From Escherichia coli (GTDB lineage: Bacteria; Pseudomonadota; Gammaproteobacteria; Enterobacterales; Enterobacteriaceae), in assembly GCF_003334305.1 (NCBI RefSeq), contig NZ_QOWS01000011.1: 64,000 bases of DNA, one strand, 5' to 3'. Positions within the stretch are counted from its first letter, which is position 1, and the number at the start of each line of letters is the position of its first letter. The position numbers were made by a program, and so were the translations under genes. The notes below the pieces were generated by a model. It made no database searches. It was not told where the DNA came from and was given only the letters and a program-made list of their open reading frames with translations. This document shows, in pieces, positions 27,086 to 45,702 of this stretch.

Positions 27086-27161
<76 letters not shown>

Positions 27162-27215
27162 GTTTAAAAGACATCGGCGTCAAGCGGATGTCTGGCTGAA
27201 AGGCCTGAAGAATTT

Positions 27216-27289
27216 GGCGCGTTAACAAAGCGGTTATGTAGCGGATTGCAAATCCGTCTAGTCCGGTTCGACTCCGGAACGCGCCTCCA
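27216..27289 (+). tRNA. cysT: tRNA-Cys (anticodon GCA)
   Basis: GGCGCGTTAACAAAGCGGTTATGTAGCGGATTGCAAATCCGTC...CCTCCA. Confidence 0.95.
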
Positions 27290-27301
27290 CTTTCTTCCCG
27301 A

Positions 27302-27388
27302 GCCCGGATGGTGGAATCGGTAGACACAAGGGATTTAAAATCCCTCGGCGTTCGCGCTGTGCGGGTTCAAGTCCCGCTCCGGGTACCA
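27302..27388 (+). tRNA. leuZ: tRNA-Leu (anticodon UAA), long variable arm
   Basis: GCCCGGATGGTGGAATCGGTAGACACAAGGGATTTAAAATCCCTCGGCGTTCGCGCTGTGCGGGTTCAAGTCCCGCTCCGGGTACCA. Confidence 0.95.
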
Positions 27389-31144: not shown

Positions 31145-31160
31145 TGTGATTTGCATCACA
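31145..31160. promoter_or_regulatory. CRP binding site (perfect TGTGA-N6-TCACA) upstream of azuC
   Basis: TGTGATTTGCATCACA about 85 bp upstream of the azuC ATG; a second degenerate half-site pair lies at 31173-31188. Confidence 0.55.
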
Positions 31161-31242
31161 TAAAGATTGATTTTTGTGATGGTTGTCATATTATAAGTGC
31201 AAAGACAATAACACCTGCATAACAAATAGTCGGAGTGCCGCG

Positions 31243-31329
31243 ATGAAACTGCGCAAGATCCTGAAAAGTATGTTCAATAACTATTGCAAGACGTTCAAAG
31301 ACGTACCACCAGGCAATATGTTCCGATAA
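31243..31329 (+). CDS. azuC: 28 aa small membrane-associated protein AzuC (within the azuCR / IsrB dual-function RNA)
   Basis: ATG at 31243 encodes MKLRKILKSMFNNYCKTFKDVPPGNMFR then TAA; followed immediately by an intrinsic terminator. Confidence 0.75.
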   Translation: MKLRKILKSMFNNYCKTFKDVPPGNMFR

Positions 31330-31334
31330 CAAAA

Positions 31335-31357
31335 AACCTGCTCCGGCAGGTTTTTTT
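31335..31357 (+). terminator. rho-independent terminator of azuC/azuR transcript
   Basis: AACCTGC-TCCG-GCAGGTT followed by T7. Confidence 0.75.
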
Positions 31358-31443
31358 GTGTCCTGGTGACGGTGGATGTGACTATCGCTGAAGATGTGAA
31401 GCCGCTACTATAACGGCTTTCAAAATGCTATCAGGAGTTTACG

Positions 31444-39950: not shown

Positions 39951-39966
39951 TGTGATCTGCATCACA
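39951..39966. promoter_or_regulatory. CRP binding site in the flhDC promoter region
   Basis: Perfect TGTGATCTGCATCACA about 270 bp upstream of the flhD ATG, consistent with a class I CRP site upstream of a long 5' UTR. Confidence 0.65.
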
Positions 39967-45589: not shown

Positions 45590-45615
45590 TTCTCCCGATT
45601 TCCTCAATTGAAATG

Positions 45616-45646
45616 AACCCGATGATCTGCGCATCGGGTTTTTTAT
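45616..45646 (+). terminator. rho-independent terminator after cheW
   Basis: AACCCGATG-ATCTGCG-CATCGGGTT followed by a T-run. Confidence 0.75.
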
Positions 45647-45675
45647 TTCAATTTCGCGGCGGGTGGCATCAGCAA

Positions 45676-45702
45676 TAAAGTTTCCCCCCTCCTTGCCGAT
45701 AA
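45676..45702 (+). promoter_or_regulatory. sigma28 promoter of tar-tap-cheRBYZ
   Basis: TAAAGTTT-N11-GCCGATAA, a perfect consensus match, about 30 nt upstream of the tar ATG. Confidence 0.85.

Follow-up and report, generated by a model that had tools for sequence, protein, structure and literature searches.

What does the segment at 31145-31358 of the window (the whole stretch of 64,000 nucleotides of Escherichia coli DNA analysed here) encode, and how is it controlled? A preliminary description, made from the sequence alone, had assigned it to the azuCR (IsrB) locus: a CRP site, a short open reading frame and a terminator, together specifying a small amphipathic protein and a base-pairing RNA. 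The assignment is borne out. The segment is almost certainly the E. coli azuC/AzuCR locus (azuR; formerly IsrB/IS092), a dual-function RNA, and no feature of its sequence speaks against this. Over the stretch between promoter and terminator, both included, the DNA shares 97% identity with K-12 b4434/b4663; the AzuC protein encoded here is identical to that of K-12 (YP_002791245.1 / WP_010723106.1); and the peptide matches the NCBIfam equivalog NF033642 over residues 2-27 with 75.9 bits (cutoff 30; E = 1.3e-21). The gene order, ftnA-yecR-azuC-yecJ-ftnB, is also that of K-12, with azuC on the strand of yecJ: in MG1655 the counterpart consists of the ncRNA azuR (b4434, 1,987,843-1,988,001) plus the CDS azuC (b4663), between yecJ and yecR. 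The azuC/AzuCR locus is not new, being well studied in E. coli and its gene annotated by RefSeq.

Within the species the locus is nearly universal: a 451-nt query spanning it finds a counterpart in 5420 of 5426 complete E. coli genomes. The six remaining complete genomes lack a match to this query, and 15 lack a match to a 30-nt query. Matching places number 5437 in total, two of them on plasmids rather than chromosomes. In all of the best 12 of the 5420 matching genomes RefSeq labels the gene, adjoining yecJ, 'azuC: stress response protein AzuC'; the warning that so short a frame is easily missed in annotation was thus apt historically, but no longer holds for these genomes. As to the RNA, a search of Rfam over 31145-31358 returned no family at the gathering score and, at E <= 1, nothing besides terminator look-alikes, the sub-threshold matches being to the terminator hairpin only (STnc370, for example, at 27-30 bits against 54). 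Rfam appears to be without an AzuCR model, and because no family covers AzuCR its RNA role is left unannotated. Other RNAs of the window do reach the gathering score, namely the MicL sRNA (59677-59984), the C0465 RNA (45609-45686) and a cluster of three tRNAs (27086-27385), probably glyW-cysT-leuZ of K-12.

Promoter architecture and the regulator of the upstream palindrome

The perfect palindrome TGTGA-N6-TCACA is expected 0.04 times per 64-kb window and was observed twice, more than chance would give. One occurrence is the CRP site already reported for this locus, TGTGATTTGCATCACA at 31145-31160 (hereafter CRP1; no strand assigned), recovered by pattern search and centred at about -48.5 relative to the transcription start site transferred from K-12. 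The other, TGTGATCTGCATCACA (39951-39966), falls between uspC and flhD, in the intergenic region that contains the promoter of flhDC, and is presumably the known CRP activation site of that flagellar master operon. With one mismatch tolerated, just one more site appears in all 64 kb, and it belongs to the same promoter: CRP2, TGTGATGGTTGTCATA at 31175-31190 (again without assigned strand), lies 30 bp downstream of CRP1 and is centred at about -18.5. CRP1 and CRP2 thus account for two of the three places in the window that fit the pattern with no more than one mismatch. A promoter scan placed the -35 hexamer (TTGATT) at 31167-31172 and the -10 hexamer (TATTAT) at 31189-31194, both on the + strand and separated by a 16-nt spacer, with the -10 standing 7 nt upstream of the transferred start site. 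CRP2 – unseen in the preliminary description – extends across the promoter spacer into the -10, taking in its first two bases.

Conservation was assessed over 59 orthologous sequences. At CRP1 the GTGA half is found in 59 of 59 promoters and the four bases of TCAC in 59, 59, 56 and 59, while the 6-bp spacer varies freely; at CRP2 the half-sites are conserved at 0.99-1.00 and the spacer at 0.67. Taking both sites together, conservation of the half-sites is 0.90-1.00 as against 0.58-0.67 for the 6-bp spacers. The -35 has a majority-base frequency of 0.97 and the -10 a conservation of 0.99, and none of the 59 sequences carries an indel anywhere from CRP1 to the -10: the 30-bp spacing between the two CRP-type sites is rigid. 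Judged by these alignments, the better conserved putative CRP site is CRP2, which overlaps the -10 and is the more obvious candidate for a repressor site.

Activation by CRP comes from sites centred near -61.5 (class I) or -41.5 (class II). With predicted centres at -48.5 and -18.5, neither of the azuC sites occupies a known activating position, and the geometry thus fits repression. In this respect the promoter differs from class I and class II activation promoters and resembles CRP-repressed tandem-site promoters, with which it shares CRP-consensus sites, one of them overlapping the core promoter, and negative regulation. In K-12, AzuC levels rise in glucose and in a crp mutant, indicating that CRP represses (Hemm 2010, as cited in PMC8915982). 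The CRP control suggested at the outset is hence supported by published work, but needs refining on two counts – CRP represses rather than activates, and there is a second site. Most likely, cAMP-CRP bound at the two sites would block RNA polymerase by occlusion; the sigma-70 promoter would start a transcript of about 160 nt at approximately 31201, ending at the terminator at 31331-31357.

The upstream palindrome has recently been given a different reading. A 2025 paper in NAR names FNR, PhoP and NarP as repressors of isrB, places the FNR motif at K-12 1,988,039-1,988,058, gives all three regulators motifs overlapping or adjoining CRP1, and reports shifts in protein occupancy mainly upstream of the annotated CRP sites (PMC12266141). 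Read on the K-12 sequence, CRP1 corresponds to 1,988,042-1,988,057, that is, to the very palindrome of the FNR motif. CRP1 might then be mainly an FNR (and PhoP-overlapping) repressor site, and control through it would be anaerobic rather than dependent on carbon source. Derepression both on mutation of the site and in an fnr knockout (PMC12266141) speaks for such a role, as do an earlier FNR ChIP-seq signal near the promoter (as cited in PMC12266141) and the sequence of the CRP1 core, TGAT-N4-ATCA, which agrees with the FNR consensus TTGAT-N4-ATCAA at 8 of 10 positions. Mutation of the palindrome, however, kills CRP binding as well, so the mutant result cannot separate CRP from FNR, and AzuC is derepressed in a crp mutant too (Hemm 2010, as cited in PMC8915982). 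Furthermore, the bases that discriminate between the two regulators are of the CRP type: G2 and C15 are present in 59 of 59 orthologous promoters and the FNR-type T/A in 0 of 59, whereas the flanking bases preferred by FNR are variable (T at position 6 in 53 of 59; A at position 11 in 40 of 59). Control of CRP1 mainly by FNR seems to us unlikely, although it is the strongest of the alternatives considered here, and on these sequence comparisons CRP is kept as the primary reading of the site. CRP and FNR could both act there.

The AzuCR transcript and its pairing partners

The AzuCR (AzuR/IsrB/IS092) transcript is placed at 31201-31359 on the + strand, its 5' end being taken from the K-12 start site at 1,988,001 (PMC8915982) and its 3' end from RefSeq b4434 (159 nt); on northern blots in K-12 the RNA is a discrete species of 164 nt (PMC8915982). 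The start site, the RNA ends and all functions given for the present strain are transferred from K-12 in this manner. The strong intrinsic terminator said to follow directly on the frame is indeed there: AAAAAACCTGC-TCCG-GCAGGTTTTTTT (31331-31357, + strand) starts 1 nt past the stop codon and consists of a CCUGC/GCAGG core extended by A/U pairs, a UCCG loop and a run of seven U. It folds with -15.2 kcal/mol (z = -4.3; 0 of 200 shuffles as good), and the same hairpin is present in the fold of the whole RNA. A consensus terminator scan did not list this hairpin, probably because the stem runs into A/U pairs; direct folding found it. The stem and U-run are conserved at 0.99-1.00 in the 59 sequences while the loop varies, and since the stem is invariant, covariation is uninformative.

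Two elements of the 5' UTR bear on translation. A Shine-Dalgarno sequence, GGAG (31232-31235, + strand; read from the sequence), stands 7 nt before the ATG and is invariant in the 59 sequences. Farther upstream, at 31212-31218 (+ strand), is the pairing site for FnrS, CACCUGC, positioned according to PMC8915982, where FnrS is described as pairing 25-31 nt upstream of the ORF and blocking AzuC translation in K-12. FnrS nt 1-7 (GCAGGUG) form seven Watson-Crick pairs with the site; the predicted duplex has an energy of -13.9 kcal/mol, as compared with -11.5 kcal/mol for the K-12 allele CACCUGU, in which the terminal pair is G.U. As in K-12, the anaerobic sRNA FnrS would pair with CACCUGC at 31212-31218 and stop AzuC translation. 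Conservation across genera is 0.89 for the FnrS site and 0.97 for the ATAACA that comes next.

The terminal pair of the FnrS duplex is one of few points at which the locus departs from K-12 AzuCR (Raina et al., PNAS 2022; PMC8915982). The position, the -35, the -10, the Shine-Dalgarno sequence and the terminator are shared, the CRP half-sites are identical, and the transcript carries four substitutions, at 31218, 31228, 31257 and 31308. The first (C here, T in K-12) converts the terminal G.U of the FnrS duplex to G-C; the second lies in the 5' UTR; the third is synonymous; and the fourth (A here, G in K-12), also synonymous, is predicted to convert a G.U to an A-U in the duplex with galE mRNA. 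Of 5411 complete E. coli genomes, only some 110 have the window's exact sequence over 31199-31228, making this a rare 5'-UTR allele. C at 31218 is nonetheless the consensus across genera: being rare in E. coli yet the cross-genus consensus, it implies that most E. coli, K-12 included, appear to hold a derived, weaker-pairing allele. A separate change is seen in a subgroup of Enterobacter/Lelliottia (loci L020, L033, L039-L042 and L045 of our sample), where azuC starts with GTG rather than ATG and the FnrS site has gone from ACACCTGCA to AAGTTGTA; the co-occurrence of the two suggests altered translational control in that clade.

Pairing of AzuR with its own targets was predicted by scanning 26-nt windows against the start regions of K-12 cadA and galE; duplexes of whole molecules ran the length of the molecule and were meaningless. 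The windowed scan delimits a predicted pairing region at transcript nt 81-114 (31281-31314, + strand), inside the ORF. With the K-12 targets, nt 81-114 are predicted to pair with cadA -16..+18 at -21 to -24 kcal/mol, and nt 89-111 with galE +19..+44 at -19.6 kcal/mol. The text of PMC8915982 likewise places the pairing region within the azuC coding sequence; it was with this text only that the predicted pairs were compared, and from it we infer that they are the published ones. In K-12 the AzuCR RNA represses cadA and galE by direct pairing, as compensatory mutations support; it binds Hfq and ProQ; and translation and base pairing interfere with each other (PMC8915982). The corresponding mechanism in the present strain would have nt 81-114 pair with the translation-initiation regions of cadA and galE, leading to their repression, with AzuC translation and base pairing in competition for one RNA. 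The double product claimed in the preliminary description – a small amphipathic protein and a base-pairing RNA – is published for K-12 (PMC8915982).

SgrS/SgrT and Spot 42/SpfP have no sequence relationship to AzuCR but are likewise short RNAs that combine a small protein with mRNA pairing and have ties to carbon source, and Spot 42 is CRP-repressed too (PMC8915982, PMC8916003). The arrangement of the two functions differs: AzuCR pairs through a part of its ORF, so that translation and pairing compete, whereas in SgrS the two regions are separate (PMC8915982).

Whether both functions count at native levels of expression deserves scrutiny, because the published base-pairing activity rests largely on overexpression constructs (PMC8915982). 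The transcript could essentially be the mRNA of a small protein, with AzuR pairing negligible at native expression: the strongest conservation signal at the locus is protein-coding, and of the RNAs overexpressed in K-12, the translation-dead L3STOP form was more active than wild type (PMC8915982). But regulation of both cadA-gfp and galE-gfp was restored by compensatory mutations, cadA-gfp was higher in an azuCR deletion strain, and the RNA co-immunoprecipitates with Hfq and ProQ (PMC8915982); in the allele studied here, moreover, the predicted complementarity to the start regions of cadA and galE is extended. A purely messenger role is improbable on this balance, and the dual-function reading of AzuCR is retained.

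Distribution across Enterobacteriaceae and the link to yecJ

The distribution of azuC outside E. coli was examined in 80 yecJ loci from other species (one genome per species), using YecJ as an anchor and inspecting the DNA upstream. Of these loci 58 have the azuC module, at a distance of about 115 nt before yecJ; they represent about a dozen genera of Enterobacteriaceae: Escherichia, the Citrobacter amalonaticus/sedlakii group, Enterobacter, Lelliottia, Leclercia and Kosakonia, as well as Silvania, Huaxiibacter, Pseudenterobacter, Pseudescherichia and Pseudocitrobacter. Among the 80 loci, azuC was not found upstream of yecJ in Salmonella, C. koseri, the C. freundii group, Buttiauxella and one Escherichia sp. 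Nucleotide homology starts exactly at CRP1 and ends just past the terminator, which means that the boundaries first drawn around the locus (31145-31358) delimit the conserved module almost exactly.

Some of the loci that are without azuC retain traces of it. Salmonella (L018, L050) and the C. freundii group (L027, L046, L054) carry a degenerate terminator-like relic, e.g. AAAAAATCTGTGGCGACAGGTTTCATC, some 60-110 nt upstream of yecJ. Such relics suggest, on sequence resemblance, that the absence of azuC from Salmonella and the C. freundii group is due to secondary loss and not to a later gain by the genera that have it. A natural deletion is seen in Escherichia sp. MOD1-EC7003 (L004:2380-2430), which is missing yecR together with the azuC promoter and ORF: ftnA abuts a relic of the azuC terminator (ACAAAAAAACTGTTCCGGCTGGTTTTTTGT), and yecJ is intact and 100% identical to that of the window.

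In every azuC-positive genome yecJ directly follows azuC on the same strand, whereas the gene on the other side of azuC differs between genomes. This constancy, with azuC about 115 nt ahead of yecJ throughout, is what would be expected if the azuC unit served chiefly to lead into yecJ, as its leader or promoter, and the terminator were read through in a regulated way. The Pseudescherichia vulneris group (L061, L062 and L070; positions 2433-2500) offers a further argument. There the gap between terminator and yecJ is short, the yecJ ribosome-binding site lying some 16 nt past the U-run of the azuC terminator, and the -10-like element TACTAT is missing upstream of yecJ: without the usual TACTAT, transcription of yecJ in this group would need read-through of the azuC terminator. 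(In the same three loci 13 nt are inserted after the azuC stop codon, ahead of the terminator.) Against a leader function stand the strength and invariance of the terminator, the discrete 164-nt RNA seen on northern blots (PMC8915982), and the AzuC peptide itself, whose whole length is subject to purifying selection, a pattern not typical of leader peptides. In addition, yecJ keeps TACTAT even in the azuC-less Salmonella, C. freundii group and Buttiauxella. The role of mere leader is, in sum, highly improbable.

In the window TACTAT is found at 31408-31413, upstream of yecJ, and the element recurs in almost every yecJ locus of the sample, whether azuC is there or not. From its recurrence it is likely to be the -10 of yecJ's own promoter, although the consensus scan did not call it. 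A more speculative proposal, and one that we consider doubtful, is that azuC and yecJ (DUF2766) form a conserved functional pair in which AzuCR, controlled by CRP and FnrS, also sets YecJ, and, separately, that C31218 tightens FnrS repression relative to K-12.

The azuC coding sequence

The frame given in the preliminary description, 28 codons with the peptide MKLRKILKSMFNNYCKTFKDVPPGNMFR, was recovered by direct reading at 31243-31329 on the + strand (ATG at 31243; TAA at 31327-31329). By itself a frame of this length lacks significance – ORFs of 20 aa or more number 40 in 2.5 kb – and the azuC ORF is held to be real because of the NCBIfam match and the pattern of codon variation across species. 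Variable sites fall at codon positions 1, 2 and 3 in the ratio 8/10/24 (of 26 each), mean pairwise diversity at these positions is 0.05, 0.10 and 0.33, and pN/pS is 0.16: by this comparison the azuC frame is under purifying selection, with a clear protein-coding signature. Pseudocitrobacter has an in-frame insertion of 6 nt (MKQRMRK...), and at the other end most genera stop at F27 with TGA, where Escherichia has CGA-TAA or AGA-TAA.

Arranged as a helix, AzuC has a hydrophobic moment of 0.53-0.60, compared with 0.25 in shuffled sequences (p ~0.01). The K-12 protein is amphipathic and membrane-associated, binds GlpD and raises its dehydrogenase activity (PMC8915982; bioRxiv 10.1101/2021.04.27.441574), and its translation was demonstrated by SPA tag and ribosome profiling (PMC8915982). 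By analogy with K-12, the GGAG at 31232 and the ATG at 31243 would direct synthesis of a 28-aa amphipathic, membrane-associated AzuC, which would in turn raise GlpD activity. Tagged-fusion, ribosome-profiling and northern experiments (varying glucose or crp), as proposed for the locus in the preliminary description, already exist for K-12.

That a non-coding sRNA contains the ORF by chance, or that the true gene is instead an antisense or TTG-extended frame of 48 aa, may be dismissed with near certainty: short ORFs are plentiful here and the codon-aligned antisense frame is stop-free in 58 of 59 sequences, but variation is concentrated at sense third positions, the 6-nt insertion keeps the sense frame, and AzuC has been seen by SPA tag and ribosome profiling (PMC8915982). 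Both 48-aa candidates were rejected individually. For the antisense ORF (31186-31332, - strand), sense third positions are antisense first positions and the antisense peptide varies accordingly; the TTG-extended ORF (31183-31329) has its start, the TTG at 31183, upstream of the transcription start site.

Publications from 2002 to 2025 had already described the azuC locus, its protein, its RNA targets and its control by CRP and FnrS; as a discovery it carries little weight. What it exposes is a gap in annotation: pipelines record the azuC CDS and miss the function of the RNA. The DNA lately assigned to FNR is the upstream CRP palindrome, with invariant discriminator bases of the CRP type, and upstream of yecJ the whole stretch between CRP1 and the terminator, ends included, is conserved as a single unit.
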